Notes: generated by a model not told the origin, from the letters alone. A stretch of DNA of 21,024 bases from Candidatus Falkowbacteria bacterium (GCA_016218485.1 JACRDY010000068.1:1-21024), one strand, 5' to 3'; counted from the stretch's first letter, positions 3,116-21,024 are shown. Translations and numbers: made by a program.

Positions 3116-3337
3116 TTTTTGAAGTTAAAAAAATCGTTGGCAGTGTGCCGGCGGTTTTTTTAACCAGAGAGATAAGAATTAAGATTAAAGATTTAAGAAT
3201 AAATACACCATTCTTAAATTTTTAATCTTATCCCTTAATTCTCCCGCTACTTGACCAATTACCAATTACCAGTAAGATAAGGGTAGGTTTGTCACTATAC
3301 CGTATAATACGGTGCACCAATAGAGGAGGAGGTCACG

Positions 3338-4684: not shown

Positions 4685-4854
4685 CTGTTTGGTGGCATCC
4701 CTGCTCGACTCACCCCGCACAATGCGGAGTGGGTGGGTTTTTATTGAATTACTTAAATTCTAAATTCAAAATCCTAAATTCCAAATACTTAAATCATAAA
4801 TTCTAAACACGCAATACCGAGTTTAAGATTTTGGATTTAGGTAGTATGATTCAT

Positions 4855-4911
4855 CCAGCACCTTCCAGAATATCCCGCAGCAAGCTGACGGGATATTCTG
4901 GAAGGTGCTGG
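4855..4911. repeat. Perfect long hairpin / palindromic element, copy 1 of the CCAGCACCTT family
   Basis: ccagcaccttccagaatatcccg-cagcaagctgac-gggatattctggaaggtgctgg, a 23-bp perfect stem. It is itself flanked by an inverted pair of AT-rich word-repeat arms (4745-4800 / 4912-4965). Confidence 0.7.
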
Positions 4912-4990
4912 ATTTATTTAGGATTTTGAATTTTAGGTTTATAATTTAATTCTTAGTTATGGGTAAGTCTCATTCTATAAATTTTCAGAG

Positions 4991-5325: not shown

Positions 5326-5448
5326 GCCGGGACGCGCTTCACCCGCCCAAATTTAGCTCTCATCATTAATGGTATCCGCGATTACCCACCATCGTGTAAT
5401 CAAAACGGACAACGTTTTTGTACCGAGCTAAATTTGGGCGGGTAAACC
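5326..5448 (-). repeat. Copy 1 of a ~125-nt terminally palindromic structured element (candidate ncRNA or MITE), immediately 5' of tRNA-Pro
   Basis: Terminal inverted repeats CACCCGCCCAAATTTAGCTC ... GAGCTAAATTTGGGCGGGTAAACC (~20 bp) enclose internal hairpins (CAAAACG-gacaa-CGTTTTG; GATTAC...GTAATC). Two further copies at 5756-5879 and 6149-6273 show the same organisation. Confidence 0.7.
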
Positions 5449-5465: not shown

Positions 5466-5543
5466 TTAATAACAATTAACAGTTAACAATTAACCAGTAA
5501 CAAACAACCAAATATGCTAGTCAATTGTTAAGCGTTAATTTGT

Positions 5544-5755: not shown

Positions 5756-5879
5756 GGCGGGACGCTCTTCACCCGCCCAAATTTAGCTCTAGTAATTAAT
5801 GGTATCTGTGACTCTCTCACGCGCGTGTAATCCAAGCAGATAACGCTTTTGTGCCGAGCTAAATTTAGGCGGGTAAACC
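5756..5879 (-). repeat. Copy 2 of the ~125-nt element, immediately 5' of tRNA-Phe
   Basis: Same terminal inverted repeats (CACCCGCCCAAATTTAGCTC...GAGCTAAATTTAGGCGGGTAAACC). The interior is divergent, but the internal hairpin is kept by different base pairs (AAGC/GCTT versus AAAACG/CGTTTT in copy 1). Confidence 0.7.
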
Positions 5880-6148: not shown

Positions 6149-6273
6149 GCGGGGTGAACGCTCTTCACCCGCCCAAATTTAGCCTTAGTAATTAAGGGTA
6201 ACCGCGATTACTCACCATCGTGTAATCTAAGCGGACAACCTTTTTGTACCGAGCTAAATTTAGGCGGGTAAAC
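6149..6273 (-). repeat. Copy 3 of the ~125-nt element, immediately 5' of tRNA-Ile
   Basis: The terminal inverted repeats and interior are highly similar to copy 1. It is followed at 6274-6313 by the same GC double hairpin and a 5' tRNA fragment GGACGTATAGCTCAG, which pairs with the TACGCCC strand of the partial Ile 3' copy. Confidence 0.7.
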
Positions 6274-6463: not shown

Positions 6464-7564
6464 ATGACTCAAAAGAATAAGAAACCCACAGTCATCGTGG
6501 CCATGTCCGGCGGCGTGGATTCGTCTGTCGCGGCCGCTTTACTACAGCGGCAGGGCTATGACGTGCGCGGCGTGCATATCAAGATGTGGTCGGATCCGGA
6601 TATCCCCTGTTTGTTTACTTTTGACCGGATTGACGCCATGAAAGTAGCGATCCAGCTCGGCATTCCTTTCACCACTTGGGATCTGACGCGCGAATACCGC
6701 AGCGCGGTCGTGGACTACATGATCCGCGAGTTTAAGGCCGGTCGGACGCCCAACCCGGACGTGATGTGTAATAGCGAGATCAAGTTCGGGGTGTTTTTGG
6801 ATAAAGTTTTAAAAACGGGCGCGGAGTATTTGGCGACGGGGCATTATGTGAAAAAAGCGCAAAGCGCAAAGCGCAAAGCACAGAGCCAGTCCACGATACA
6901 AAAATTGTATATCGCGGCGGATGGGAATAAGGATCAGAGCTATTTTCTCTGGCGGCTGAATCAGCAGCAGCTGCGGCATAGCCTGTTTCCCCTGGGTGGT
7001 CTGACTAAGCCGCAGGTGCGAGTCCTCGCCAAACAGTTTAAGCTGCCTACCGCTGACAAGCCGGACTCGCAGGGTATCTGCTTCATCGGCGAGATTAACC
7101 TCAAGGATTTCCTGGAACACTACATCCCCCGCCGTCCGGGCACAATCGTGACCACGGACGGCCGCGTACTCGGCCATCATGAGGGTCTCCCCTTCTATAC
7201 CATTGGTCAGCGTGAGGGGCTGGGTCTGGGCGGTGGCATCCCCTACTATGTCGTTGCCAAAAATTTTAAAACCAATCAGCTGATTGTTGGCAGCCGGGGC
7301 GCGGCTGAACTGTTTCTGCCGAGTTTGCGGTTCACCGCCGCCAATTGGCTACTTGGCAGCGAGCCGAAACTGCCTCTGATCTGCCTGGCGCGTATCCGCT
7401 ACCGTCAGCCGCTGGAGCGTTGTCGGGTCAAACGCATCAGCGGTCGCGGCATTCGGGCGATCTATCAAGCGAAATTTACCGAGCCGCAGCGGGCCATTAC
7501 TCCCGGTCAGTCCATTGTGTTGTACAGGAGCGAGGAGATGATCGGGGGCGGGATTATTATTTAG
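6464..7564 (+). CDS. mnmA: tRNA-specific 2-thiouridylase (tRNA (5-methylaminomethyl-2-thiouridylate)-methyltransferase)
   Basis: A 366-aa ORF. PP-loop VAMSGGVDSSV near the N-terminus. Collinear with MnmA throughout (DQSYFL, GICFIGE, ITPGQS..GGGII C-terminus). It contains an ~8-codon in-frame insertion encoded by GCGCAAAGCGCAAAGCGCAAAGCACAGAGC at ~6856-6890. Confidence 0.85.
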   Translation: MTQKNKKPTVIVAMSGGVDSSVAAALLQRQGYDVRGVHIKMWSDPDIPCLFTFDRIDAMKVAIQLGIPFTTWDLTREYRSAVVDYMIREFKAGRTPNPDVMCNSEIKFGVFLDKVLKTGAEYLATGHYVKKAQSAKRKAQSQSTIQKLYIAADGNKDQSYFLWRLNQQQLRHSLFPLGGLTKPQVRVLAKQFKLPTADKPDSQGICFIGEINLKDFLEHYIPRRPGTIVTTDGRVLGHHEGLPFYTIGQREGLGLGGGIPYYVVAKNFKTNQLIVGSRGAAELFLPSLRFTAANWLLGSEPKLPLICLARIRYRQPLERCRVKRISGRGIRAIYQAKFTEPQRAITPGQSIVLYRSEEMIGGGIII

Positions 7565-7700
7565 TCCTTAGTCCATAGTCCCTAGTCCTTAGTCCATAGT
7601 CCTTATTCCATAGTCCTTAGCGTATAGTTTTAGCGTGAAAGCCTCCACTAAGTACTAGGGACTAAGGACTATGGACTATGTATAGGACTATGTACTATTT
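7564..7700. repeat. Palindromic spacer built from TAGTCC/TAGGAC-type 6-9-nt words
   Basis: gtccttagtccatagtccctagtccttagtccatagtcc...actagggactaaggactatggactatgtataggactatg. The two arms are reverse complements of each other. Confidence 0.55.
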
Positions 7701-7817
7701 CCTCTAATTTTGCTATACTAATACTATAGCTATCAGGACATTGACGCTTTTCCAGTCGTGTGCTAACCTATTGGCAAACAAAAGCCCTATGATACGGGTT
7801 TTTTATTTTAAGTCAGT

Positions 7818-7920
7818 CCAGCACCTTTCATCATTTTTATCTAAAATTTGCCATTATATTAGCTAAAATAAGATTAATTATGGTTGATTTATTTTAGATA
7901 AAAATGATGAAAGGTGCTGG
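7818..7920. repeat. Long perfect hairpin, copy 2 of the CCAGCACCTT family, with an AT-rich interior; it ends exactly at the start codon of the next gene
   Basis: ccagcacctttcatcatttttatctaaaat...attttagataaaaatgatgaaaggtgctgg, an ~30-bp perfect stem. Confidence 0.65.
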
Positions 7921-8523
7921 ATGGCTAAAAATATGCAAAAATCACGGATATTGCAAAAACTACGTAAATATTGGAGAAAATTAGGCGCTTTTTTGGTGCA
8001 CATGCATGTGCGTCGGGTTGAATTGGCTGTTTTTGCTGTAATTTTATTTGAATTTTCTTTTCCTCAAGTATCATTAGCTCAAGAATTGCAGGCTCCGGCC
8101 AGCTATCAGACCGAGAGCGTGATGTATGAAACAGTGATTCGGGATGCCGCTCCGGTTATCAGCGACGCGGCTGTATTGGCTGATTTTAATAATAGTCTGC
8201 CAATGGCGGCTGATCGTCAGCCGACCCGTACCATCTGGGTGACGGTAACGGCCTACTCCAGCACTCCGGATCAGACTGACGACAGCCCGTGTATTACGGC
8301 TAACGGGTTTGATGTCTGTGAACACGGGCAGGAGGACGTGATCGCGGCCAATTTTTTGCCCTTTGGTACCACGGTCAAAATGCCGGAGTATTTCGGCGAC
8401 ACAGTCTTTACTGTGCAGGATCGGATGAACGCGCGCTACTACAGCCGCGTTGATGTCTGGATGCAGAGCCGGGAGGCGGCTAAACAATTCGGCGTGCGGA
8501 CGCTTAAGGTTGAGGTTTATTAG
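7921..8523 (+). CDS. Secreted 3D-domain protein (MltA-like fold, cell-wall binding/remodelling; related to YocH/YuiC C-terminal domains)
   Basis: An N-terminal hydrophobic signal/anchor (LAVFAVILFEFSFPQVSLA). The C-terminal region has VTVTAYSSTPDQTDDSPCITANG ... VIAANFLPFGT ... FTVQDRMN...VDVWM, with three spaced Asp residues. The true start may be the internal ATG at 7933. Confidence 0.6.
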   Translation: MAKNMQKSRILQKLRKYWRKLGAFLVHMHVRRVELAVFAVILFEFSFPQVSLAQELQAPASYQTESVMYETVIRDAAPVISDAAVLADFNNSLPMAADRQPTRTIWVTVTAYSSTPDQTDDSPCITANGFDVCEHGQEDVIAANFLPFGTTVKMPEYFGDTVFTVQDRMNARYYSRVDVWMQSREAAKQFGVRTLKVEVY

Positions 8524-8587
8524 CTACAAATAGCGAATAGCACATAGTCAATAGTACATAGCGCTTGAGAAGGGCGTTTTTTTATAT

Positions 8588-8700
8588 GGCTACATTATCA
8601 CATTGCTACATTGCCAAATTGCTAAATTGTCACACTGTTGTGTGGGTTATTTAGCAATTTGGCAATGTAACAGTTTAACAATTTAACAATGTAGCAATTT
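8588..8700. repeat. Large palindrome of ATTGC/ACATTG-type words
   Basis: A perfect 17-bp inverted repeat, ttgccaaattgctaaat / atttagcaatttggcaa, sits inside longer symmetric arms (ctacattatcacattgctacattgcc ... ggcaatgtaacagtttaacaatttaacaatgtagc). Confidence 0.55.
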
Positions 8701-8745
8701 TGCTTTTCCCTTTTACTCCCGCGTGAAATACGGTATAATATTTTT

Positions 8746-9246: not shown

Positions 9247-9478
9247 CACAAAGCTCAGAGCACAAAGCGCAGAGTTCAGAGCGCAAAGCACGTTTCAAAA
9301 GAGCGTCTTTTTTTAATTAGGAATTACTAATTACGAATTACGAATGAGATTACCAAAGAGCGGCTTTTGGCAGGCTAGGAACATGTAACATGTAGCATAT
9401 AGCATGTAACTCCATACAAGCTACACGCTACATGCTACAAGATTTTCTCTCATTTTAAACACTTTTATATACTTTTGA

Positions 9479-9507
9479 TTGACTTTTTATTTAAAATATG
9501 CTATATT
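9479..9507 (+). promoter_or_regulatory. Sigma70-like promoter followed by a ~175-nt structured leader upstream of the 9685 gene
   Basis: TTGACT, 17-nt spacer, TATATT. The leader contains hairpins CACACTGCAGAAGTGTG, CAACCGAA..TTCGGTTG and CCCCGCAAGGGG (GNRA loop). Confidence 0.5.
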
Positions 9508-9684
9508 GACAAATCACACTGCAGAAGTGTGTTTGTATACAGAACCTTGAAAACGGCGTTTATGACCAATAAGCGCTTACAAATATGCAACTCAAGTACA
9601 ACCGAAGAGTCAGTTTTCGGTTGAGTGAAATAGTACAGTCAACAATTCCCCGCAAGGGGTGCAACGGTTTTCGGAGGTGTCATC

Positions 9685-10698
9685 ATGATGCGATTGATTG
9701 AGTCTCTTGATGCGAAAGTCCAAAAGTGGTTCGGCATTCAGCTGATCAAGCTGTGGGACGCGAAAAGCCAAGGCAATCCCCCAGTCATTGTTCGGCTGGA
9801 TGAAAAGCACGAGATCGTTTTCCGATCCGTCTTCGGCAGTGACGACCACACCTTCAGTGGTTACCGGATAGAAGAACCCACCTATTGCTGGTGGGTCCCG
9901 GTCTTCCGTGACGAATACGTCGCCACGATTTTTACCGGGGAGTACTCCGCACCGTTCAATACGCAAGGATTTGAGGCCAACTCCGGCGTGGAAAATATAA
10001 ATGACCTGGAAAAGGAATTCAAGGGCATGATGGGCGCTGCCGCGTGGGAGAAGGCTCGTAAGGAACTGGAAGAGGTGATACAGCGTCGTCTGAAAGGCGG
10101 CGCGCCGAAAGTGACGATATACGTCTCCGGTACGTTGCAGCTCGATGTTGAAGGCATCATCAACGCCAGCGCGAAATACGCCACTCGCTTGTTCAAGAGC
10201 GGCAACGCGGATCAGATCATCAACGGCATGATGGAGCTCGCGCTCGCCCATGTCTTCGGCAGCATGATGCTGGAATCAGCCCTGATCCTCGCGGGTCATC
10301 GGCGGGAAAAGACGATCAAGCAGCTGATGAACTTGATGAATTTCGGCTGCCTGGAAGTGGACGAAGGTGGCGAGCCGATCGAGGCGACGCGGGTCACGGG
10401 TATCAAAGGTCTGCGGTACTACGGTCTCCGTCTGGTGCAGTTCGGTATCAAGCGGATTGTGCCGCCGGAGGAGATTGAGGAAGCGATCCGTCAGGAAGAA
10501 AGCGCCGAACGAGAGCGCGTGGCCGATAAAGCCAAGGCTGATGTCGCGGCAATGATTCACGATCTTCCAGCGGCGTTGGCGTTTACGGTTATGCACCTGA
10601 CCGATGCCCAAGTCAAAGGCCCGGGTCTCGAAATTTCAGTCAGTAAGAATAAGAAGGGAAAGTCCGGCGGTGCAGCAGCGAGTGACTCCACCGATTAA
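9685..10698 (+). CDS. Hypothetical soluble protein, 337 aa, no recognisable domain
   Basis: Long ORF with a GGAGGTG RBS 6 nt upstream and coding-like composition. No motif recognised by eye. Confidence 0.6.
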   Translation: MMRLIESLDAKVQKWFGIQLIKLWDAKSQGNPPVIVRLDEKHEIVFRSVFGSDDHTFSGYRIEEPTYCWWVPVFRDEYVATIFTGEYSAPFNTQGFEANSGVENINDLEKEFKGMMGAAAWEKARKELEEVIQRRLKGGAPKVTIYVSGTLQLDVEGIINASAKYATRLFKSGNADQIINGMMELALAHVFGSMMLESALILAGHRREKTIKQLMNLMNFGCLEVDEGGEPIEATRVTGIKGLRYYGLRLVQFGIKRIVPPEEIEEAIRQEESAERERVADKAKADVAAMIHDLPAALAFTVMHLTDAQVKGPGLEISVSKNKKGKSGGAAASDSTD

Positions 10699-12654: not shown

Positions 12655-12656
12655 AT

Positions 12657-12713
12657 CCAGCACCTTTCAGAATACCCCGTCAGCTTGCCGTGGGGTATGC
12701 TGAAAGGTGCTGG
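12657..12713. repeat. Perfect long hairpin, copy 3 of the CCAGCACCTT family, immediately upstream of polA
   Basis: ccagcacctttcagaataccccg-tcagcttgcc-gtggggtatgctgaaaggtgctgg. It is homologous to copy 1 (4855-4911) with compensatory substitutions on both arms. Confidence 0.7.
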
Positions 12714-12750
12714 ATTTTATTACCCCAAAAATGGTAAAATAGGCCTATCT

Positions 12751-15549
12751 ATGGCTAAGAAAAAGTTAGTAATTATAGATGGCAACGCCCTGATTCACCG
12801 GGCGTTCCATGCATTGCCGCCGACGCTGCGGACCAAGGACGGCACGGTCGTCAACGCCGTATACGGTTTTGCTTTGATTCTTCTCAAAATTTATAAAGAG
12901 CTGAAGCCTGATTATCTCGCCTTGACGTTGGACCGGGCCGCGCCGACATTTCGCCATATTGAGTACACCGAGTACAAGGCGCATCGGATCAAGCAGCCCG
13001 ATGAGCTGTACGCGCAAATTCCACTGGTTAGAGACTTGGCGGGCGCGTTTAATATCCCGACGTACGAGCTGGACGGCTACGAGGCGGATGACCTGATTGG
13101 CACGATTACCGCCAAGACCGACGGCGGTGTCAGGAATATCATTGTTACCGGCGACATGGACACGCTCCAGCTGGTGGATAACGACACTGAAGTCTTCACC
13201 ATGAAGAAAGGGGTCAATGACACGGTCACCTATGATAGTGCCGCCGTGGTCGAGCGCTATGGCCTGCGGCCAGACCAGATGATTGATTACAAAGCGCTGC
13301 GCGGGGACGCTTCAGACAATATCCCGGGCGTGCGGGGAATCGGCGAGAAAACCGCGGTGGAGCTGCTGCAACAGTTTGGGACTTTGGAAAATGTATATAA
13401 AGAAATAAAGAAATTGAGAAATAAAGAAATTACCAGTGTCCGGCCAAGAGTGGCAGAGTTGCTGTTGGAGCATGAGCAGGACGCGCAGATGTCACAGCAT
13501 CTGGCGACGATTGTCCGGGACGCGCCAATTAAGTTTATGATAGAGGACGCGGTAGTGGCCGGGTATGACCAGCAGGCGGTTTTTGACTTATTCCAAAAAC
13601 TGGAATTCAAGTCGCTCTTGAGCAAGATCCCGGGCATGGAAGGCCGGCAGCGTCCCGAGAGTAAAGAGGGGCAGCGGGGGTTGTTTGATAATTCAAAATC
13701 ACAAATTCAAAATAATAAATCCGAAATAAATTCTAAATTCCAAATCCGAAACGGCTACCACTTGCTGGACGATGAGAAGAGTTTTAAAAAGTTTATCGTG
13801 GAACTCAAGAAGCAAAAGTTGATTGTTATTGACACCGAGACCACGGGGTTGGATACGATTACGGATACATTATTGGGGATTGGGTTTTGTTGGAAAGAGG
13901 GGGAAGGATATTATTTAGAAATAAAGAAATTAAGAAATAAAGAAATTGAAAAAGCCATCAGCAGGATTTTATCTGATGAGAAAGTAAAAAAAGTCGGGCA
14001 CAATTTGAAGTTTGATATTGAGGTATTGACGAACGCCGGGTTTACCGTCCGGGGTGTGTATTTTGACACCATGCTCGCCTCCTACCTCCTGGATCCGGGC
14101 TCTCGGGCGCATGACCTGGATACGTTGGCCTTCACCGAGCTTGGCTACCAGATGACGCCGATTGAGCAGCTGATTGGCTTGGGCAAGAGTCAAATTACTT
14201 TAGCCGACGTGGCGGTGGAAGTCGTGGCCGACTACTGCTGCGAGGACGTGGATTATACATTTCGGTTGTATCAAAAGTTAAGTAACGCCATTGAGCAGAG
14301 AAACAGTTTTGGCTTGATGGAAACCATAGAAATGCCGCTCGTTGCCGTGTTAGCCAAAATGGAACTCTTGGGCGTGAAGATTGACATGAAGTTCCTGGGC
14401 CAGCTGGATCGTGAGATTGAGACCACGCGGCAGAAACTAGACAAGAAAATTTTTGCCATGGCAGGCAAAGAATTCAATCTTGATTCACCACTGCAGCTCA
14501 AAGAAATCCTGTTTGAGACGCTGGAAATCCCGACCGAGGGGCTGAAGCGCGGTAAAACCGGTTTCTCCACGGCCGCGGCTGAATTGGACAAAATGCGCGG
14601 GCTGCACCCGATTATTGACTTGATTTCCGAGCACCGGGAGCTGGCCAAACTGCAGTCCACTTACACCCAGGCACTGCCAAAATTGGTTAATAAAAAAACC
14701 GGCCGGGTGCACACCAGCTTTAATCAGACGGTGGCGGCTACTGGTCGGCTGTCTTCGTCAGACCCAAATCTCCAGAACATTCCCATTCGGACGTCATTAG
14801 GCCGCGAGGTGCGCAAGGCCTTCATCGCCGAAAAAGGCTGCCAAATACTGAAAGCCGACTACTCGCAGATTGAGCTGCGGATCGTGGCTAGTCTGGCGCA
14901 AGACAAAGAGATGTTGGCGATTTTCAAGCGCGGGGAAGATATTCATGCCGCTACAGCGGCAGCGATTCACGGCGTGCCCCTGGACAGTGTGACTAAGGAA
15001 ATGCGCTACAGCGCTAAAGAGGTCAACTTCGGCGTGCTCTACGGCATGGGCGCGTACGGCCTGTCGTGGCGCACCGGCATCAGCATGGCTGAGGCCAAAA
15101 ATTTTATTGATAAATATTTTAAGACCTTCTCTGGCGTGAAAAAGTTCGTGGATAGTACGATCAAGTTCGCCCGGCGGGACGGCTACGTGGAGACGCTGTT
15201 TGGCCGCCGCCGCTATCTGCCGGAGATTAATTCAGGCATGGCGCAAGTCAAAAACGCGGCCGAGCGCATGGCCATCAACGCGCCAATTCAGGGCACGGCC
15301 GCGGACTTGATTAAGCTGGCCATGATCGCGCTGGACACAAAGTTAGCGGCTGAATTTACAACAGAAGAAGTAAAGATGATCCTGCAGGTGCATGATGAAT
15401 TGGTGTTTGAGGTAAAGAGCGGTTTAGTAAAAACCGTCGCGCCACTGGTGAAGGATGTGATGGAGAACGTGTACCAGCTGCGCGTGCCGATTGTGGTGGA
15501 CGTGGAGGCGGGGGAGAGCTGGGGGGAGACGGGGGAGGTTAGTTTGTAA
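12751..15549 (+). CDS. polA: DNA polymerase I (5'-3' exonuclease, 3'-5' exonuclease and polymerase domains)
   Basis: Start chosen at MAKKKLVIIDGNALIHRAFHALPP (ATG 12751). The ORF-track start at 12685 lies inside the upstream hairpin. 5'-nuclease motifs are present (GDASDNIPGV.GIGEKTA), as are the 3'-5' exo region (VIDTETTGLD ... YLLDP) and the Pol A family motifs (RRxxKxxNFGxxYG; VHDELVFE). Confidence 0.9.
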   Translation: MAKKKLVIIDGNALIHRAFHALPPTLRTKDGTVVNAVYGFALILLKIYKELKPDYLALTLDRAAPTFRHIEYTEYKAHRIKQPDELYAQIPLVRDLAGAFNIPTYELDGYEADDLIGTITAKTDGGVRNIIVTGDMDTLQLVDNDTEVFTMKKGVNDTVTYDSAAVVERYGLRPDQMIDYKALRGDASDNIPGVRGIGEKTAVELLQQFGTLENVYKEIKKLRNKEITSVRPRVAELLLEHEQDAQMSQHLATIVRDAPIKFMIEDAVVAGYDQQAVFDLFQKLEFKSLLSKIPGMEGRQRPESKEGQRGLFDNSKSQIQNNKSEINSKFQIRNGYHLLDDEKSFKKFIVELKKQKLIVIDTETTGLDTITDTLLGIGFCWKEGEGYYLEIKKLRNKEIEKAISRILSDEKVKKVGHNLKFDIEVLTNAGFTVRGVYFDTMLASYLLDPGSRAHDLDTLAFTELGYQMTPIEQLIGLGKSQITLADVAVEVVADYCCEDVDYTFRLYQKLSNAIEQRNSFGLMETIEMPLVAVLAKMELLGVKIDMKFLGQLDREIETTRQKLDKKIFAMAGKEFNLDSPLQLKEILFETLEIPTEGLKRGKTGFSTAAAELDKMRGLHPIIDLISEHRELAKLQSTYTQALPKLVNKKTGRVHTSFNQTVAATGRLSSSDPNLQNIPIRTSLGREVRKAFIAEKGCQILKADYSQIELRIVASLAQDKEMLAIFKRGEDIHAATAAAIHGVPLDSVTKEMRYSAKEVNFGVLYGMGAYGLSWRTGISMAEAKNFIDKYFKTFSGVKKFVDSTIKFARRDGYVETLFGRRRYLPEINSGMAQVKNAAERMAINAPIQGTAADLIKLAMIALDTKLAAEFTTEEVKMILQVHDELVFEVKSGLVKTVAPLVKDVMENVYQLRVPIVVDVEAGESWGETGEVSL

Positions 15550-15655
15550 GTTCATAAGTTCATTAGTTGGTAAGTTTATTAGTTTATTAGTTGGAAAGTT
15601 TAAAAGTTAACCCCGTCGGATCGCTCTGGCGGGGTCTTGCTGTTCGTGCGGGGGT

Positions 15656-15769
15656 TCATGGCAGGACGCCCAGGACGTTGCAGATGGCGTTGGCCACGAA
15701 TGTGAAGACGATCGCGCCGATGGCGGTTTGCCACGCCATCACGAACATGGATTGCGTGAGATGATGCAT
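15656..15769 (-). CDS. Possible small hydrophobic peptide (37 aa), immediately downstream of the 15779 lipoprotein gene
   Basis: Minus-strand ATG at 15769: MHHLTQSMFVMAWQTAIGAIVFTFVANAICNVLGVLP-stop. It is followed by the hairpin CCCCGCCAGAGCGATCCGACGGGG and a T-rich tract. No clear RBS. It is below the ORF-track length cutoff. Confidence 0.25.
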   Translation of the reverse strand: MHHLTQSMFVMAWQTAIGAIVFTFVANAICNVLGVLP

Positions 15770-15778
15770 GGGTTGCCC

Positions 15779-16192
15779 TTACTCGCAGACGCGGTCGCGT
15801 GCCTTGATGGCCTCGGCCAGTTTGGCTTCCGTGAGGAGACGCTGCTTGTCCAGGCGCGTGGCCTCGCTGTAGAGCCGCTGCCACTCCAGCTCGATGGCGG
15901 GGTAGTTGGCGTTGTATCGCGACGAGGTGATGTCCTTGGCGACTTGGTAGTCGGCCAATTTGAGGTCCGCCGCTTTGGCGGAATCCTTGGCTTTGTCAGT
16001 GAGGTCGTCCAGGTCGCCCTGGAGTTTGTCGGCCTGCTTGTCGGCCGCGGTGCAGGCGGCCTTGGTGTTCGCGACCGACTCTTTTCCGATCATGTTGTCC
16101 ATGGCCACAGCCTGCTGGTTGGTCGCGGCGCAGCCGTTGACGACGATTCCCAGGCAGCACATCAGAACGAACAGAACGAGCGCGCGTTTCAT
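15779..16192 (-). CDS. Small lipoprotein, paralog A (signal peptide, lipobox VNGC, coiled-coil body, C-terminal Cys)
   Basis: MKRALVLFVLMCCLGIVVNGCAATNQQA.... GGAGGAGG RBS. A conserved 5'UTR hairpin CGTCCAATCCCGGACG sits directly upstream of the RBS. Confidence 0.7.
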   Translation of the reverse strand: MKRALVLFVLMCCLGIVVNGCAATNQQAVAMDNMIGKESVANTKAACTAADKQADKLQGDLDDLTDKAKDSAKAADLKLADYQVAKDITSSRYNANYPAIELEWQRLYSEATRLDKQRLLTEAKLAEAIKARDRVCE

Positions 16193-16379
16193 CGGTTTCT
16201 TCCTCCTCCGTCCGGGATTGGACGGTTATGTTTGCGATTGTGTATCTTATGACATTTTCGTCGGGCTGTCAATTATGGTTGAGATAAAAATAATGTCTGG
16301 AAAATAGGGCTTTTAGAAATGGTTGAGCCCCGCCGGAACGATCCGATGGGGCTCTGTTGCGCGCTGATTCGCGATGGAG

Positions 16380-16688
16380 TCATTTCTGACTCCGTTCGCA
16401 GTAGGTATTGCGCATGGCTTGCGCGATTTCCAGGTTGAGGTGGAGCCGGTCTGACTGTTGTGCGAGCTCGACCGCAGCCGGACCAGACTTGGTCGAGCGT
16501 AGGCGCTGCTCAGTCACCGCGATCTCGTGGCTGATGTTAGCGATCGACTGCTCGGCCTCGGCGCACTTTGCCGGGTCGGCTACGTCCTGCATCCCCAGCA
16601 GATGCGGGATTGTCAGGGCGTTGGGGTTGGTGGCCGCGCAGGCCACCGTGAGGCATAGTACGGTGACGGTCAGGATGGCCTTAATCAC
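16380..16688 (-). CDS. Small lipoprotein, paralog B, with a GTG start
   Basis: The ORF-track 179-aa ORF is an over-extension. AAAGGAGGACGACC-GTG gives M-IKAILTVTVLCLTVACAATNPNA... (lipobox VAC), about 102 aa. Its start overlaps the stop of the upstream paralog by 8 nt. Body and C-terminal Cys are homologous to paralogs A and C. Confidence 0.6.
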   Translation of the reverse strand: MIKAILTVTVLCLTVACAATNPNALTIPHLLGMQDVADPAKCAEAEQSIANISHEIAVTEQRLRSTKSGPAAVELAQQSDRLHLNLEIAQAMRNTYCERSQK

Positions 16689-17109
16689 GGTCGTCCTCCT
16701 TTGACGGGCAGTAGTATGTGCGCCGTCGGGTGGCTTCAGTGAGAGCTTTGCTCGTGTTTTGTTGATCGACCGCCAGTGAGTTGATGGCGGTCTCGAGCCG
16801 AGTCCACTGGGCTGAGAGAGCGGCGTTTTCCTCCGTATCATCCTCGCCCCGCAGGGTTTTCTGGAGGCTGACTCGGAAGTAGCCCTTGATCTCGGCTTGC
16901 GTCTTTTTGATCGCCGCATCGAGCTTCTCGAGCGTGCTTGTCAGCGCGCTGACGTCCTGGCGCGCTTTGGCGCACTCGGCCTCCCTGTCGGCGACCCACT
17001 CATGGCCGAGGAGCATATCCAGCTCGGCGGCGTTCTGGTTCTTGGCCGCGCAGCCACTGGCGAGGCACGCCAGCACCAGCAGTGCCAGAACGAATGATGT
17101 CTGTTTCAT
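16681..17109 (-). CDS. Small lipoprotein, paralog C
   Basis: MKQTSFVLALLVLACLASGCAAKNQNA.... GGAGGA RBS. The same conserved upstream hairpin as paralog A (CGTCCAATCCCGGACG-A-GGAGGA). Confidence 0.7.
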   Translation of the reverse strand: MKQTSFVLALLVLACLASGCAAKNQNAAELDMLLGHEWVADREAECAKARQDVSALTSTLEKLDAAIKKTQAEIKGYFRVSLQKTLRGEDDTEENAALSAQWTRLETAINSLAVDQQNTSKALTEATRRRTYYCPSKEDDRD

Positions 17110-17436
17110 TGCTTGTATTCCTCCTCGTCCGGGATTGGACGATTGTATTGGCGATTTTTGACTTTACCTTATTTCCACCTCCCTGTCAATGGCATTAGAC
17201 TAAAAAAATACGGCAAGCTAATGGGGCGGCTCACCGTGGTTTCCTGGAAAGGAATGGAGGGGGTGTTTTGAGGTATGGTGCTGTGGCAGCGGTCTCTGCC
17301 GGGGCGGCTTGCAGCTCATCTTCGGAAATATTGCGATGAGCGCCGCCGATCTCTGCCTGTTGGTCTGGCGGCAGATTTGGCGGGGTAGCAGTGAGGATGG
17401 TGTACACATGGCCAGTGCCATTGAGCCGACTGCTGA

Positions 17437-18030
17437 TCACTCTGGCCGGCCGTCCTTGCCACAGGACCGGGCTCCCGTTGGGGAATTTCGGTGCTGCATT
17501 TTCTTCATTCTGCTCTTCCTCCTGGTGATGGGCGTAGTGTACCGGATTATTTTTTTTCGCCAAGACTGTTGGTAAAAGGTAAGCCCGTCCCCGAACGCGG
17601 GAGGGCGGGCCAAATGAGCTTGCTGGCAGAAGCGGCGGCGCCAGCTTTTGATCTGTTCTATTTGAACACTCACATCGCGATACTTCCCTCGGGTCTGGCG
17701 CTGGATCGCCGACATCGACAGCAGGACTCTGTAGTCCCGTTCGGTCATTGTCTCCGGCAAGAATGGCAGGACGATGAATGCTCCACCAGACTGTTCCAGC
17801 TCGTCCAGTACGTTCTGGCCGTAGTAGTGCCGGATGGCCGCTCGGAAGACCATGTCTTGGGTGACAAGATCGCTCAAGAGCTGCTCCTGTAGGACCTCGC
17901 GGGCAATCTGTGCCAGTTCGAGGTCGTCGCAGGTTTGGCTCCCGTGTTCTATCTCAATCAGGGCGGCGAGTTGGCCATTGGCGGTGCAGCCGATGGAGAC
18001 TGCGATCATTAAAAAAAGAGCGCGTTTCAT
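17437..18030 (-). CDS. Lipoprotein, unrelated to the A/B/C paralogs; its 3' end is uncertain
   Basis: MKRALFLMIAVSIGCTANGQ (lipobox IGC) with an AAGGAGAAGG RBS. The last ~60 codons are basic and low-complexity, and they overlap an alternative 110-aa ORF (17231-17563) in another frame. Possible frameshift or misassembly. Confidence 0.5.
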   Translation of the reverse strand: MKRALFLMIAVSIGCTANGQLAALIEIEHGSQTCDDLELAQIAREVLQEQLLSDLVTQDMVFRAAIRHYYGQNVLDELEQSGGAFIVLPFLPETMTERDYRVLLSMSAIQRQTRGKYRDVSVQIEQIKSWRRRFCQQAHLARPPAFGDGLTFYQQSWRKKIIRYTTPITRRKSRMKKMQHRNSPTGARSCGKDGRPE

Positions 18031-18096
18031 TGCCTTCTCCTTGAGCGTGAAAGGGTTATGTTCTTTGTACCATACTAGGGGAAAAGGTCAAGATTA

Positions 18097-18167
18097 GACA
18101 CAGATTACACAGATAAACACAGATGGCACAGATCCGTGTGATCTGTGATTATCTGTGTAATCTGTGT
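18097..18167. repeat. Near-perfect ~70-bp palindrome of CACAGAT-type words, abutting the stop codon of the 18168 gene
   Basis: agacacagattacacagataaacacagatggcacagatc|cgtgtgatctgtgattatctgtgtaatctgtgtct. A second copy, 68/71 identical, is at 20861-20931. Confidence 0.8.
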
Positions 18168-19796
18168 CTAATAGATTTCCTTCTGGTAACACTCCTCACA
18201 GTACACCCGTTCCGGCCGCTCCGGCGCGTACGTCGTCTCAAATTCATTGGTGCAGCCCGCGTTCATGCAGGCGCGGTGGTACAATGTGCGCGGGTTGCGT
18301 TGCTGGAGTCGCGCCAAATGGCGACAGTCAAAGCACTGGCGGGCGATTGGCAGGCCGTGGCTGCGGTAGAATTTCAATTCCTGAGGAATAATTTTGTAGT
18401 CTTTTTTGCAAGTAGTGCAGGCCAGGATTTCGTTGAGAATGGCGTCTGTCACTTGGGTAATGTCAGCTGGTATGTCCGTCAGTGTTTCTCGGCCAAAGGT
18501 GCCCGGCAGCTCATTCTGCCAGAACCAGCCTTTACTCTGGACCTCATCTTTGGTCAGGGGAAAGTACTCCCGCGCGATGGTTTCGTTATAGCAGAACGGG
18601 GACAGGCGGATCGGGAAAAATTCGCCGTACTGGTCAGCTCGCTTCATCTCCTCAATAATCTTTTCTTTCAGTTGCTTATATTCGGTTTCGGAATATTTTT
18701 TGTTCAAAATTTGGTAGGAGCCGTGTTTGAGTCCGGTGCAGCCGAATAAATTTTGACTATAGAAACACTGCCACGAGTAGCTCGTGAATGAGCAGTCCCA
18801 GCAGGCCACCGTCGCAATTTGATATTTACTGTTGACGATGCTGATACAGTTGTAGCTCATTTCGGCTTTTGGCGAATAATTAATATCACTGACCGCTGAC
18901 GCGCCTCGGGGCAGGTTCCAGACGTAGAAGCAGTCTTCCAACTCTTGTGATTCAAAGCAGTGCGCGGCGTTGCGACAGTTATAGAGGTAGTCGCCGGTTG
19001 AGTTCTCGCAGTGGCGGATGCGCGCATATGGCCGCGGCACGGTCAGGCTGAATTGGTAGAATGTTTGATAAAATTTTTCCGGATTAGCTTTGGCTTCCGC
19101 TAACACTTTCGCGCATTCTTCCTTAGTCGCCGGTTTATTGAAAATATAATTTTCTTTGTGGCGCAGGCCGACGCAGCCAATGCAATTCTGGCAGCTGATG
19201 CAATCATAGCAAAAGGCCAGTTCAGATGAATTTTCGCAGTCATTACAATAAATGCCGGAGAAAAGATTTTGGCAGTGGACGCACTGGTAGCAGTTTTGCA
19301 GATCAAAGCCTTGCGCGCAGTCCATGGAGTCAAACGAGTTATTAACAAAATAGGAATAGTAAATATTCTCCCCGGTAACGCCGGAGATGCACATATAGGA
19401 ATCTTTGTAGTAGACCGAGTGCGGGCAGTAGTCGCTGTTTTCGCCGTGCGAGATGATCAGCGCCAGGTGCGGAGTTTTCAGTAGCAGCTCTTTGAATTGT
19501 TCCAGAAATGGTTTAGCTGGATCATAGTCCAGCGCTGGCGCTTGCCACCTGTCGCTCCACCAGCACTCCGGGCAGTACTGGAGGTAGGGTTTGTCTTTGG
19601 CGTAAAAAGAGACAATAGCTTTTTTGCAGAGATCACATTGGCGAGTATAGAGCATTCGTTCATTACGCCAGGCACAGCGAGATCGCTGCCGGCAGTCCGG
19701 GCAGCTTTTTGGCTCGGGCAGATTCAGTTTCACGAAGAAGTCTTTCTCGGCGCTCGTCAGGTCAAATTGTGCGTTGCAGTGTTGGCAGGTGGTCAT
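18168..19796 (-). CDS. Cysteine-rich multi-zinc-ribbon protein, 542 aa with roughly 60 Cys, and homologous N- and C-terminal double-CxxC modules
   Basis: N-terminus C5xxC8...FxxLNLPEPKSC32PDC35RQRSRCAWRNERMLYTRQC54DLC57...YC75PEC78WW. C-terminus CTTCKKDYKIIPQELKFYRSHGLPIARQCFDCRHLARLQQRNPRTLYHRACMNAGC...YCEECY. Both share the skeleton CxxC-F-LP-CxxCR-R-RN-R-LY-R-C-C-YC-EC. The centre has ~20-aa repeats of the form YNC-x3-C-x2-S-x2-L-x2-C. Confidence 0.7.
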   Translation of the reverse strand: MTTCQHCNAQFDLTSAEKDFFVKLNLPEPKSCPDCRQRSRCAWRNERMLYTRQCDLCKKAIVSFYAKDKPYLQYCPECWWSDRWQAPALDYDPAKPFLEQFKELLLKTPHLALIISHGENSDYCPHSVYYKDSYMCISGVTGENIYYSYFVNNSFDSMDCAQGFDLQNCYQCVHCQNLFSGIYCNDCENSSELAFCYDCISCQNCIGCVGLRHKENYIFNKPATKEECAKVLAEAKANPEKFYQTFYQFSLTVPRPYARIRHCENSTGDYLYNCRNAAHCFESQELEDCFYVWNLPRGASAVSDINYSPKAEMSYNCISIVNSKYQIATVACWDCSFTSYSWQCFYSQNLFGCTGLKHGSYQILNKKYSETEYKQLKEKIIEEMKRADQYGEFFPIRLSPFCYNETIAREYFPLTKDEVQSKGWFWQNELPGTFGRETLTDIPADITQVTDAILNEILACTTCKKDYKIIPQELKFYRSHGLPIARQCFDCRHLARLQQRNPRTLYHRACMNAGCTNEFETTYAPERPERVYCEECYQKEIY

Positions 19797-19893
19797 AGGT
19801 TTATCTTTAATTATCCAGCATACTCGCAGAGGAGTTTTTGGTCAATTATAATCAGACAATAGTGGTTAATTCTATTGGTATAGTTGATTAAAT

Positions 19894-19922
19894 TTGACTT
19901 ATTTTAAAGTAAATAATATAAT
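19894..19922 (+). promoter_or_regulatory. Consensus sigma70 promoter for the TrmB-family regulator
   Basis: TTGACT, 17-nt spacer, TATAAT. It lies ~190 nt upstream of the ATG at 20112. Confidence 0.55.
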
Positions 19923-19957
19923 ATTACTGTCGTCGGAAATTGTTGACGAGTTCACCT

Positions 19958-20078
19958 GGAGTGACGAATTGAAGCCGAGCGAAGCGAGGCTGAAATTCGT
20001 TATTGTTGCTCATGTAACGAATTTCGTCCCGCTGTGCCCGCCTAACGGCAGGGCTGGCGGGACTCAATTCGTCACTCC
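19958..20078 (+). promoter_or_regulatory. Highly structured leader: candidate cis-regulatory RNA (a closing 15-bp helix around three hairpins), or alternatively nested palindromic operator sites
   Basis: Outer pairing GGAGTGACGAATTGA (19960-19974) / TCAATTCGTCACTCC (20063-20077). It encloses AGCC-gagcgaagcgag-GGCT, GAAATTCGTTA...TAACGAATTTC (11 bp) and GTCCCGC...GCGGGAC (7 bp). Confidence 0.4.
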
Positions 20079-20111
20079 ATTTAACACAGTTGGAGGTTGT
20101 ATTAATACTCT

Positions 20112-20861
20112 ATGTCCACCAAAAATATTCTAGAAGACTTGGGTCTAACCAAAAGCAAGGCTGATGTGTACTTGGCGGCGTTAGCCGTTGGCAGCGGCTC
20201 GGCCCAGGAGATCGCCAATCGGGCGGGTTTACCGCGGACTACTACTCATGAAATTCTGCAGACGCTCGTCGGCATGAGTCTGATTGGTTTCGTGACTAAA
20301 GGCCGGACGCGGATCTACAGCGCCGAGCCGCCGGAGAAGCTCAAAATTTTACTCAAAGAAAAAGAGGCCAGGCTCGAAAAGGCTTTGCCAGAATTGTCGG
20401 CTCTCTTCAACACCAGCGGCATTCGGCCGCGGGTGCGGTTTTACGAAGGTGAGGATGGTATTAAAACAGTGTTTGAAGACACGCTGACCGTCAGCAACAA
20501 GCTGTTGCGCAGTATTCTTTCCATGAAAGACCTGTATGAAATGCCGGGCAAGGATTACGTCAACGCCTACACGCGCCGGCGAATTGCGGCTGGAATAAAA
20601 CTGCGCGTGGTGCGTTCAGAGGGTAAAGAAGTGGAGAAAGTTTGGCCGGCGAGCACTCGAGACAGCCGCGATCTGCATTACGCGCCGGATGATATGTTTT
20701 TCCCGATGACGGTGTATATTTACGACAACAAGCTCGGGCTCATCAGCAGCAAAAAAGAAAACTTCGGCATGATTATTGAGTCGCCGGATCTGTATCAGAC
20801 CATGAAGAATATGTTTGAGGTGATGTGGCAGGTGACGCGGGTGATGAAACCGGTGGATTAG
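20112..20861 (+). CDS. TrmB-family transcriptional regulator (N-terminal winged HTH plus C-terminal effector domain)
   Basis: A 249-aa ORF with the N-terminus LGLTKSKADVYLAALAVGSGSAQEIANRAGLPRTTTHEILQTLVGMSLI, which matches the TrmB HTH pattern (LGLTxxEAxVYLxLLxxGxxTAxEIAxxSGVPRTKVYxVLxxL). Confidence 0.65.
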   Translation: MSTKNILEDLGLTKSKADVYLAALAVGSGSAQEIANRAGLPRTTTHEILQTLVGMSLIGFVTKGRTRIYSAEPPEKLKILLKEKEARLEKALPELSALFNTSGIRPRVRFYEGEDGIKTVFEDTLTVSNKLLRSILSMKDLYEMPGKDYVNAYTRRRIAAGIKLRVVRSEGKEVEKVWPASTRDSRDLHYAPDDMFFPMTVYIYDNKLGLISSKKENFGMIIESPDLYQTMKNMFEVMWQVTRVMKPVD

Positions 20862-20931
20862 ACACAGATTACACAGATAATCACAGATCCGTGTGATCTG
20901 TGATTATCTGTGTAATCTGTATCTAATAGAT
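20861..20931. repeat. Second copy of the CACAGAT-word palindrome
   Basis: agacacagattacacagataatcacagatc|cgtgtgatctgtgattatctgtgtaatctgtatct. It overlaps the TrmB stop codon on one side and abuts the stop of the partial paralog on the other. Confidence 0.8.
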
Positions 20932-21024
20932 TTCCTTCTGGTAACACTCCTCACAGTACACCCGTTCCGGCCGCTCCGGCGCGTACGTGGTCTCAAATTC
21001 ATTGGTGCAGCCTGCGTTCTTGCA
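20923..21024 (-). CDS. 3' end of a second paralog of the cysteine-rich multi-zinc-ribbon protein; it continues beyond the window
   Basis: Positions 20923-21024 are ~96% identical at the nucleotide level to 18168-18262 (same ...CEECYQKEIY-stop), with a few substitutions. Confidence 0.7.
   Translation of the reverse strand, partial: CKNAGCTNEFETTYAPERPERVYCEECYQKEIY

Follow-up and report, generated by a model that had tools for sequence, protein, structure and literature searches.

A tandemly arrayed Patescibacteria protein family with predicted zinc-finger and β-solenoid domains and a possible VirD4-like ATPase partner

A multigene family at the end of a Falkowbacteria contig

What is the 542-aa cysteine-rich protein encoded near the right-hand end of a Candidatus Falkowbacteria contig, and why does its gene lie back to back with a TrmB-like regulator and in line with a second gene of its own kind? 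The window analyzed here is that whole contig, 21,024 bp from a metagenome-assembled genome (MAG). An open reading frame (ORF) at 18168–19796 on the minus strand encodes the full 542 aa given in a preliminary description of this DNA; its product, named HY933_04705 by NCBI and carried by this contig only, contains 41 cysteines rather than the ~60 first reported. A divergent intergenic region of 316 bp (19797–20111) separates the gene from that of a 249-aa TrmB-family regulator on the plus strand (20112–20861). Beyond it, on the minus strand, a second family gene is truncated where the contig stops, so that its last 33 codons and stop remain (20923–21024; translation CKNAGCTNEFETTYAPERPERVYCEECYQKEIY*). 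The TrmB gene diverges from copy 1 and converges on copy 2. The two copies had been called both tandem and convergently arranged; because both are on the minus strand they are tandem, and tandem paralogy proved to be the rule in the family. The right-hand end of the window falls within a small array of a multigene family that extends across Patescibacteria, and the layout of family gene, antisense TrmB-like gene and family gene is a standard cassette of its arrays.

The breadth of the family was apparent from a profile search, which recovered 6,383 representatives at 50% identity (expectation value (E) ≤1e-3), 2,501 of them at E ≤1e-30. The best 150 profile matches are all 542–602 aa long and align end to end, and a scan of one genome per species gave 569 relatives. 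Loci and neighbors were counted in the 79 best loci, nearly all of which are labeled as Patescibacteria or Candidate Phyla Radiation (CPR) lineages, the named ones including Peregrinibacteria, Paceibacterota, Nomurabacteria and Gracilibacteria. The handful of other labels seems due to mis-binning, and as far as seen the family is found only in Patescibacteria (CPR). These counts bear out the earlier impression of a protein that recurs in CPR genomes with no assigned function.

Pfam detects the terminal zinc fingers only. In the window protein, zf_Tbcl (PF13451) matches residues 3–40 weakly (17 bits versus a cut-off of 24, E 0.0059), as does zf_Tbcl_2 (PF23477) residues 504–540 (15.3 bits versus 27, E 0.016). 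Among 44 homologues, zf_Tbcl matches 23 (E ≤0.01, best 4.9e-10) and zf_Tbcl_2 matches 15 (best 7.6e-7). The CxxC ... CxxC quartet characteristic of zf_Tbcl is present as C4, C7, C32 and C35. Both Pfam families, labeled 'probable treble clef', have the same CxxC...CPxC and CxxC...YCxxC patterns as the terminal modules; they comprise ~35–50 residues each and have no assigned function, whereas the protein here has a 350-residue core without a Pfam family, no match having been obtained over residues ~90–450 in the window protein or the homologues scanned. A PDB sequence search gave nothing below an E of 0.8, and Foldseek returned no close PDB structural match, the best being left-handed β-helix enzymes with TM-scores ≤0.23. 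NCBIfam and PADLOC have no family for the cysteine-rich protein (PADLOC, 0 families), and PHROGs gave one weak match, to a PHROG of unassigned function. Across these four resources the yield was thus sub-threshold fingers and one weak PHROG, in keeping with the view that the protein has no confident place in a known family. In the literature searched we found no description of the family and no publication naming PF13451 or PF23477; a Lipocone preprint was considered as a possible description and set aside, as it concerns other proteins. Because no known family or system accounts for the gene, family and context together are rated as categorically new. The locus itself is unexceptional within the family, and the sequences were already public as hypothetical proteins, so that the novelty lies in the description of family and context and not in the gene.

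Predicted architecture of the 542-aa protein

Each family member is a cytoplasmic protein of ~550 aa. In an AlphaFold2 model based on 105 homologues (predicted local distance difference test (pLDDT) 89.8, predicted template modeling score 0.90), two arginine-rich double zinc-finger modules bracket a duplicated β-solenoid with 12 residues per turn. No transmembrane segment is predicted in the 542-aa protein. In the model, an N-terminal zinc module (residues 1–88, encoded at 19533–19796 on the minus strand, as are all parts below) is followed by a short helix (97–107), a first β-solenoid of about nine 12-residue coils (112–222; 19131–19463), a helical hairpin (225–250) and a second solenoid (259–368; 18693–19022) that is homologous to the first by consensus, sub-profiles and secondary structure. 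A helix (370–386) and a conserved extended segment (~389–452) then lead to the C-terminal zinc module (453–542; 18171–18440). Helix and segment together (369–452) correspond to 18441–18692 and are supported by near-invariant residues and pLDDT; the N-terminal module is supported by its zf_Tbcl match and cysteine conservation, and the C-terminal module by its homology to the N-terminal one, its zf_Tbcl_2 match and cysteine conservation.

The two terminal modules (1–92 and 450–542) are homologous to each other, as the preliminary description had it (BLASTP 8e-14, 30% identity over 86 aa), and each consists of a zf_Tbcl finger followed by a zf_Tbcl_2 finger. Site 1 of the N-terminal module, C4/C7/C32/C35, for which zinc ligation is predicted, is cysteine in 96–100% of the 105 homologues, and the outer site of the C-terminal module, C510/C515/C533/C536, in 99–100%. 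The inner-site cysteines are mostly conserved as cysteine in only 70–79% of homologues, the exceptions being C54 and C460 (97–98%); in site 2 of the N-terminal module (C54/C57/C75/C78) the figure is 70% for C57, C75 and C78. A near-invariant arginine ladder, CRxxxRxxxRNxRxLYxR, lies on a helix of both modules, with R36, R40, R44, N45 and R47 in the first and R492, R496 and R508 in the second near-invariant. The protein ends in ...CYxKE(I/V)Y.

The central part was initially taken for an array of ~20-aa repeats. That period is not right, because the strands predicted by AlphaFold2 recur every 12 residues and the Cys–Cys spacings are almost exclusively multiples of 3, lags of 3, 6, 9, 12 and so on dominating both solenoids; the coil is 12 residues, with a cysteine or small residue at each third position. 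Solenoid 1 terminates in a CxxCxxCxxCxxC coil (C196–C208, 72–95% conserved). Both solenoids are capped by a conserved G-C-x-G-L-(K/R) ... Y-x-I-(L/F)-N ... S-x-E-E-Y sequence, and sub-profiles of each half match about two sites per protein. The extended segment carries the motif EYGEFFP..SPF.YNET.A..YFPL, and its G391, F393, F394, P395, Y403, N404, E405 and W426 are near-invariant; over residues 369–452 the pLDDT is mostly >90, dipping to about 85 at 431–440.

Conservation is distributed unevenly over these parts, column entropy being 2.0–2.2 in the solenoids versus 1.6 in the terminal modules. Of the cysteine columns, only 16 are ≥80% conserved among the 105 homologues, and the invariant residues are mostly aromatic, arginine or asparagine, not cysteine. 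Because most central cysteines are only 20–70% conserved, with other residues substituting in many homologues, they look structural, occupying what appear to be core-packing positions rather than those of obligate ligands. The closest known folds are the narrow cysteine-containing β-helices of insect antifreeze proteins (TmAFP, 1EZG; CfAFP, 1M8N); CsgA and the left-handed β-helix of LpxA/LpxD type were compared as further β-solenoids. The 12-residue coils and the inward cysteines or small residues at each third position are shared with TmAFP, with no significant structural or sequence similarity that would indicate homology. Conceivably, the solenoid of 12-residue coils lined with cysteines represents a new metal-binding fold.

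Tandem arrays of anciently diverged paralogs

At least two family genes are present in 69 of the 79 loci and at least five in 33, with a maximum of 10 in 22 kb. The arrays are compact and co-oriented: 340 of 342 array genes are on the same strand, and 198 of 280 gaps between array genes are ≤150 bp. For 307 array genes, the median of the best protein identity within the array is 44% and the highest value 61%, compared with a median of 56% for the best match in another genome's locus, and only 5.5% of genes are nearer to an array-mate than to a gene of another genome. By these sequence comparisons, the array paralogs are old. Patescibacteria genomes are roughly 1 Mb, yet many give 10–20 kb to family arrays, a large investment.

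Tandem arrays of 2–11 diverged paralogs are likewise found for the VirB2 pilins of Patescibacteria, also in tiny genomes (PMC12102498). The pilins are unrelated, small and secreted, unlike the family here, which has ~550 aa, no transmembrane segment in the protein tested and paralogs with orthologues across genomes. A mobile-element origin was considered and rejected, no relatives having been found in IMG/VR pattern scans, INPHARED phages or PLSDB plasmids.

Elsewhere, arrays are interrupted by genes for ORF6N (KilA-N-like) and Fic/DOC proteins, a RhuM–Fic fusion and an AbiEii toxin. Such array-interrupting genes lie at 9343–9915 and 13314–13862 in locus L006, 11677–12219 in L007, 11740–12768 in L013, 11647–12684 in L033, 13315–13962 in L079 and 3246–3899 in L012.

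VirD4-like ATPases beside the arrays

Clustering of neighboring ORFs yielded two widely shared families only, the TrmB-like regulator and a TrwB/VirD4/HerA-type ATPase. The ATPase is represented by 35 genes in 25 loci, against some three expected by chance, our own rough estimate from about two such genes per genome and ~1.4 Mb of locus sequence, and about 17 of the genes lie within 190 bp of an array edge on the same strand. The proteins match Pfam T4SS-DNA_transf, TrwB_AAD_bind, TraG-D_C and DUF87, the first three in common with TrwB/VirD4 coupling proteins; TrwB is their sole PDB sequence match, and in PADLOC they match the mad8, HerA and DndH models. Unlike TrwB and VirD4, they appear soluble, with no transmembrane segment in ten tested, and lie outside type IV secretion system (T4SS) loci; unlike in T4SS coupling systems, no relaxase or known substrate signal is present. 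Four of the ATPases carry zf_Tbcl_2 (45–56 bits versus a cut-off of 27), so that the family is linked to soluble VirD4-like ATPases by neighborhood and by a shared finger. Family-specific zinc-module profiles had no match in any non-family ORF of the loci.

Orphan proteins of this type are abundant in the phylum. A 2025 survey counted 5,713 VirD4-type homologues in 2,918 Patescibacteria genomes, only 148 of them near virB4, and its authors consider exaptation for other functions possible (PMC12102498). The conserved neighborhood of ATPase and array suggests a motor–client pair. It is the strongest lead to emerge and, the ATPase being absent from the window, goes beyond the preliminary description.

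The array-adjacent ATPase at 621–2084 in L035 and its relatives match a phage family, phrog_5156 (8.5e-54). Distant relatives (24–26% identity) occur in Bacillus phage G and SPO1-like phages, one of them annotated as VirD4 component-like.

The second copy and homogenized gene ends

The second family gene was initially presented as a copy with a ~96% identical 3′ end, arising from a recent duplication. What stood up is the near-identity of the 3′ end: at 20856–21024, the gene end and palindrome are 97% identical to those of copy 1 over 143 nt, minus one 9-nt word. The reading frame is intact over 33 codons and stop, and the three substitutions in the 102 coding nucleotides change one residue (M to K). 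The rest of the gene is beyond the contig end, and because only these 102 nt of coding sequence are visible, a full-length near-identical paralog is not established.

Other arrays show how little such an end says about the remainder of a gene. Array-mates that are 38–50% identical elsewhere share 82–100% identity over the last 60–120 nt, over the downstream hairpin, or both. In L045 the gene tails are 94% identical and the proteins 45%, the first 120 nt being 82–85% identical; in L015, where the gene pair flanks a TrmB-like gene as in the window, the values are 90% for tails and 45% for proteins. The 80 nt downstream are 100% identical in L006 (proteins 47%), and the last two 60-nt alignment windows, covering gene end and hairpin, are 87–90% identical in L014 (proteins 44%). 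Because 38–50%-identical array-mates share gene ends in this way, the near-identical 3′ end says little about the rest of copy 2, and a near-identical whole second gene would lack precedent among the 307 array genes examined. The notion of a recent whole-gene duplication was set aside on these gene-end identity profiles: array-mate identity has the low median and maximum given above, yet gene ends reach 82–100%. The near-identity here most likely reflects homogenized gene ends, and the preferred reading of copy 2 is that of another family gene, perhaps rather unlike the first, whose end and hairpin are homogenized. Gene conversion is a process that could produce such homogenization. Homogenized ends and word-built hairpins of diverged paralogs are puzzling in their own right.

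Neighboring 5′ ends are locally near-identical too in L045 (8234–11755), L081 (8265–13572) and L070 (5549–8895). Because the bodies of these genes are about 45% identical, both gene ends seem to be homogenized.

It is highly improbable that copy 2 is an assembly artefact or strain variant and not a second gene of the same genome. In its favor, the contig does end within a repeat. Against this, several mismatches and a 9-nt deletion separate the copies, which speaks against a collapsed k-mer overlap, and the TrmB 3′ end continues straight into copy 2, where nothing resembles the flank of copy 1. A plain k-mer overlap is unlikely on both counts, and the same layout of family gene, TrmB-like gene and family gene is the norm elsewhere. 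A misassembled repeat, named at the outset as what would undo the observation, is accordingly not what these differences, the 9-nt word and the TrmB junction point to.

A TrmB-like regulator that recurs with the family

That a TrmB-family regulator lies between the copies was confirmed by a Pfam TrmB helix–turn–helix match (PF01978; 41.8 bits versus a cut-off of 25.6, E 9.7e-11) in the 249-aa ORF, and its placement recurs in other lineages. The protein has a winged helix–turn–helix, a long helix (coiled-coil) and a PLD-like domain, the architecture of TrmBL2 without the sugar-binding subdomain. It differs in this from TrmBL2/TrmB of Thermococcales, lacking at 249 aa the sugar-binding C-terminal subdomain of TrmB. 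The NCBIfam TrmB and TrmBL1 equivalogs score it at only 24–26 bits, versus cut-offs of 600–650; their alignments cover the N-terminal ~95 residues only, and the model length is ~340.

TrmB-like genes were found in 22 loci by neighbor clustering, the window included. Of those that directly adjoin a family gene, all 22 lie on the opposite strand to it; two further ones lie about 5–6 kb off, on the same strand. Thirteen were scored divergent, with gaps of about 0–330 bp, and nine convergent, most of these between two family genes and facing the start of the next. A 10-kb stretch can hold several TrmB paralogs. The pairing is therefore a recurrent cassette. The preliminary description had gone further and supposed a dedicated regulator, an idea that we rejected: because the closest orthologues of the window TrmB (63–67% identity; ten loci at about five distinct genomic places) adjoin unrelated genes, with no family gene nearby in any of the ten, the regulator is not dedicated to the family. 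L091 shares synteny with the window, including an upstream polA, yet the family gene is missing there. A cluster of thioredoxin, DUF7387, HicA and thioredoxin-reductase genes lies divergently to a 67%-identical TrmB orthologue in L093 and L094.

In the intergenic region between the family gene and the TrmB gene, a consensus scan gave a sigma-70-like match, TTGACT-17-TATAAT, at 19894–19922 on the plus strand and weaker matches on the minus strand at 19845–19817 and 19946–19918. Between the TTGACT-17-TATAAT site and the TrmB start codon sits a 123-nt three-way-junction element (19957–20079) with a perfect 16-bp closing stem (fold −76.9 kcal/mol, z-score −10). No Rfam family matches it, and none of 99 loci contains it.

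CACAGAT hairpins at gene ends

The palindrome said to be shared by both gene ends was found in two copies of ~70–80 nt. Palindrome 1 (18093–18172) has 40-nt arms that are 90% complementary and consists of four CACAGAT words followed by three inverted ones, at a spacing of about 9–10 nt; the stop codon of the family gene lies inside one arm. Palindrome 2 (20857–20927), which is palindrome 1 minus one 9-nt word, has 33-nt arms that are 97% complementary and contain both stop codons, that of TrmB on the plus strand and that of the second family gene on the minus strand. CACAGAT occurs 15 times in the window versus 1.8 expected, a count reached in 0 of 100 shuffles. As RNA, palindrome 1 folds at −51.1 kcal/mol (z −12.1) and palindrome 2 at −48 and −53 kcal/mol, the z-scores of the hairpins being −11 to −12 overall.

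A scan for canonical intrinsic terminators at the palindromes gave short inner sub-hairpins only, with no enrichment over shuffles; read from the sequence, the long palindrome stem is AT-rich and is followed by CUUGACCUUUUCC. Rfam has no gathering-level match in 17900–21024, generic miRNA-hairpin matches below threshold being all that was returned. Like intrinsic terminators and repetitive extragenic palindromic (REP)-like elements, these are long stable hairpins right past stops and between genes. They differ in having no U-tract and a stem that is not GC-rich, and in being built from a repeated 7-nt word at ~9–10-nt spacing that is kept between genomes with 62%-identical orthologues.

The second of these genomes is MAG SO_2017_GW1_108, which carries the 62%-identical orthologue and five CACAGAT palindromes adjoining family genes, 2–4 nt past the stop of four of them and just upstream of the fifth. 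Aligned together, the seven hairpins of both genomes show 81% column identity and share 38 invariant columns. Family genes of this lineage have the CACAGAT palindrome in common as a hairpin at the gene end, and this version of the hairpin is tied to the family in the two genomes. A 25-nt string, ATCTGTGATTATCTGTGTAATCTGT, is matched exactly in nine unrelated metagenome contigs (L082–L090), one from the human gut, where several occurrences lie within similar inverted repeats of CACAGAT/CACGGAT words. We read the element as a probable transcript-end or stabilizing hairpin that travels with gene ends; an array of protein-binding words is possible.

Because at least seven further long hairpins occupy intergenic positions in the window, some built from TAGTCC or ATTGCTA, word-built gene-end hairpins seem to be a genome-wide habit. 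Four are word-built (7562–7680, 8583–8703, 3167–3243 and 5474–5540, from TAGTCC, ATTGCTA/AATTG and others) and fold at −18 to −52 kcal/mol (z −5 to −10), one of them beginning on the mnmA stop codon. Three copies of another hairpin family, with the common arm ATCCAGCACCTTyCA, lie at 4853–4913, 7817–7921 and 12655–12715 (−42 to −58 kcal/mol, z −9 to −13) and possibly represent a dispersed repeat. Beside the genes for tRNA-Pro, tRNA-Phe and tRNA-Ile there are inverted repeats that have TTCACCCGCCCAAATTTAGC as their arm (5338–5446, 5768–5877 and 6164–6272).

Possible roles of the family

Tentatively, the best reading of these observations is that of a zinc-stabilized rod protein working with an orphan ATPase. 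The conserved terminal arginine-rich zinc modules would act as handles, docking on a polyanion (most plausibly nucleic acid), on the partner ATPase or on both, and the more variable solenoid would be the paralog-specific body. Next to many arrays lies the gene of a soluble TrwB/VirD4-like hexameric NTPase, which the family proteins may serve as clients or adaptors. In the cassette, the TrmBL2-like protein could repress or tune the divergent family gene from the shared intergenic region, and the hairpin could end or stabilize the transcripts of both convergent genes. That the zinc-finger/β-solenoid family and the soluble VirD4-like ATPases form an undescribed Patescibacteria-specific system, a motor acting on a repertoire of rod proteins, is a doubtful extension. 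If true, it would give these bacteria a set of rod proteins, up to ten or more in number and specialized long ago, would explain the thousands of 'orphan' coupling-protein homologues noted in the literature, and might underlie host interaction or nucleic-acid handling of these episymbionts.

Several observations weigh against a rod protein partnered by an ATPase. There is no such ATPase on this 21-kb contig or in the loci of the closest orthologue (L004 and L014), which have housekeeping neighbors only; most of the 79 loci have none within 10 kb, and no T4SS genes recur beside the arrays in these loci. The shared zf_Tbcl_2 domain is weak evidence because it is a generic module and the family C-module profile misses the ATPase fingers. 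The window protein itself falls under the Pfam cut-offs for both fingers, and zinc binding, nucleic-acid binding and protein–protein contacts are all properties that we infer, the AlphaFold2 model containing no metals. As to regulation, the closest TrmB orthologues adjoin thioredoxin/TrxR, RecA/AsnB, trigger factor and a response-regulator-like gene. The hairpin has no canonical U-tract, and hairpins of CACAGAT words also occur on unrelated metagenome contigs without family genes.

Other roles were weighed against the same data. The proteins could be autonomous nucleic-acid binders (transcription factors, nucleoid or RNA-binding proteins), the ATPase neighborhood being secondary and the two arginine-rich zinc modules gripping two sites spaced by a rigid solenoid. 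The arginine ladder conserved on a helix of both modules is consistent with this; treble-clef fingers often bind nucleic acids, and to our knowledge CPR genomes have few recognized regulators. CACAGAT words placed about one DNA turn apart beside family genes in two genomes would be candidate sites, but no observation favors a link to the family proteins over one to TrmB or RNA structure. With a median isoelectric point of 6.3, an acidic solenoid 1 and no match to a known DNA-binding family, we consider autonomous binding unlikely. Export, in which a VirD4-like protein would pass the family as an effector repertoire to a Patescibacteria T4SS and into the host cell, would turn the conserved ...CYxKE(I/V)Y terminus into a recognition signal. 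T4SS substrates are typically recognized through C-terminal signals, and here the strongly conserved C-terminal residues are almost always the last of the protein. Arrays that abut VirD4/TrwB-type ATPases, a multigene repertoire suited to host interaction and the diversified arrays of 2–11 VirB2 pilin genes in Patescibacteria (PMC12102498) point the same way. The ATPases tested nevertheless lack the membrane anchor of true coupling proteins and lie far from virB4 (PMC12102498), no T4SS gene recurs near the arrays in the 79 loci, tightly folded multi-zinc proteins would be poor translocation substrates, and the paralogs are anciently conserved (median 56% to another genome's locus) and not fast-evolving. 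Export is on these grounds distinctly unlikely.

Still less probable is a part in defense or inter-organism conflict, which would make the arrays resemble defense islands. The Fic/DOC, AbiEii, RhuM–Fic, ORF6N and toxin–antitoxin-like small genes that interrupt arrays elsewhere would suit it, as would the ATPase matches to PADLOC mad8, HerA and DndH and to phrog_5156 (8.5e-54). PADLOC, however, gave nothing for the cysteine-rich protein, and the family is absent from the IMG/VR pattern scans, INPHARED phages and PLSDB plasmids; ancient, uniform, full-length paralogs with a broad distribution and often housekeeping neighbors are also unlike patchy defense genes. A metal or redox buffer, metallothionein-like or bearing Fe–S through the central cysteine lattice, would draw on the 41 cysteines, on the CxxCxxCxxCxxC coil at 196–208 (72–95% conserved) and on the one TrmB orthologue divergent from a thioredoxin/thioredoxin-reductase operon. 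With most central cysteines 20–70% conserved, often substituted and apparently structural, and with invariant residues that are mostly aromatic, arginine or asparagine, this role seems very improbable.

Other features of the contig

To the left of the family gene, a block at 15600–18030 has 56–62% GC, versus ~49% for the cysteine-rich gene. Three small minus-strand ORFs within it (15779–16192, 16681–17109 and 17437–18030) are paralogous and have lipoprotein-like N-termini; the two that were scanned had no Pfam match. Housekeeping cargo elsewhere on the contig comprises purD, mnmA, five tRNA genes and polA, and the left end lies inside a 16S rRNA gene. Within 1–2005, the 16S rRNA match covers model positions 520–1533, and an inverted repeat of ACGAATTAC-type words at 660–752 lies inside it. 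Past the rRNA are a match resembling group-II-intron D1–D4 (1370–1483) and an ORF for a LAGLIDADG endonuclease (1400–2005).

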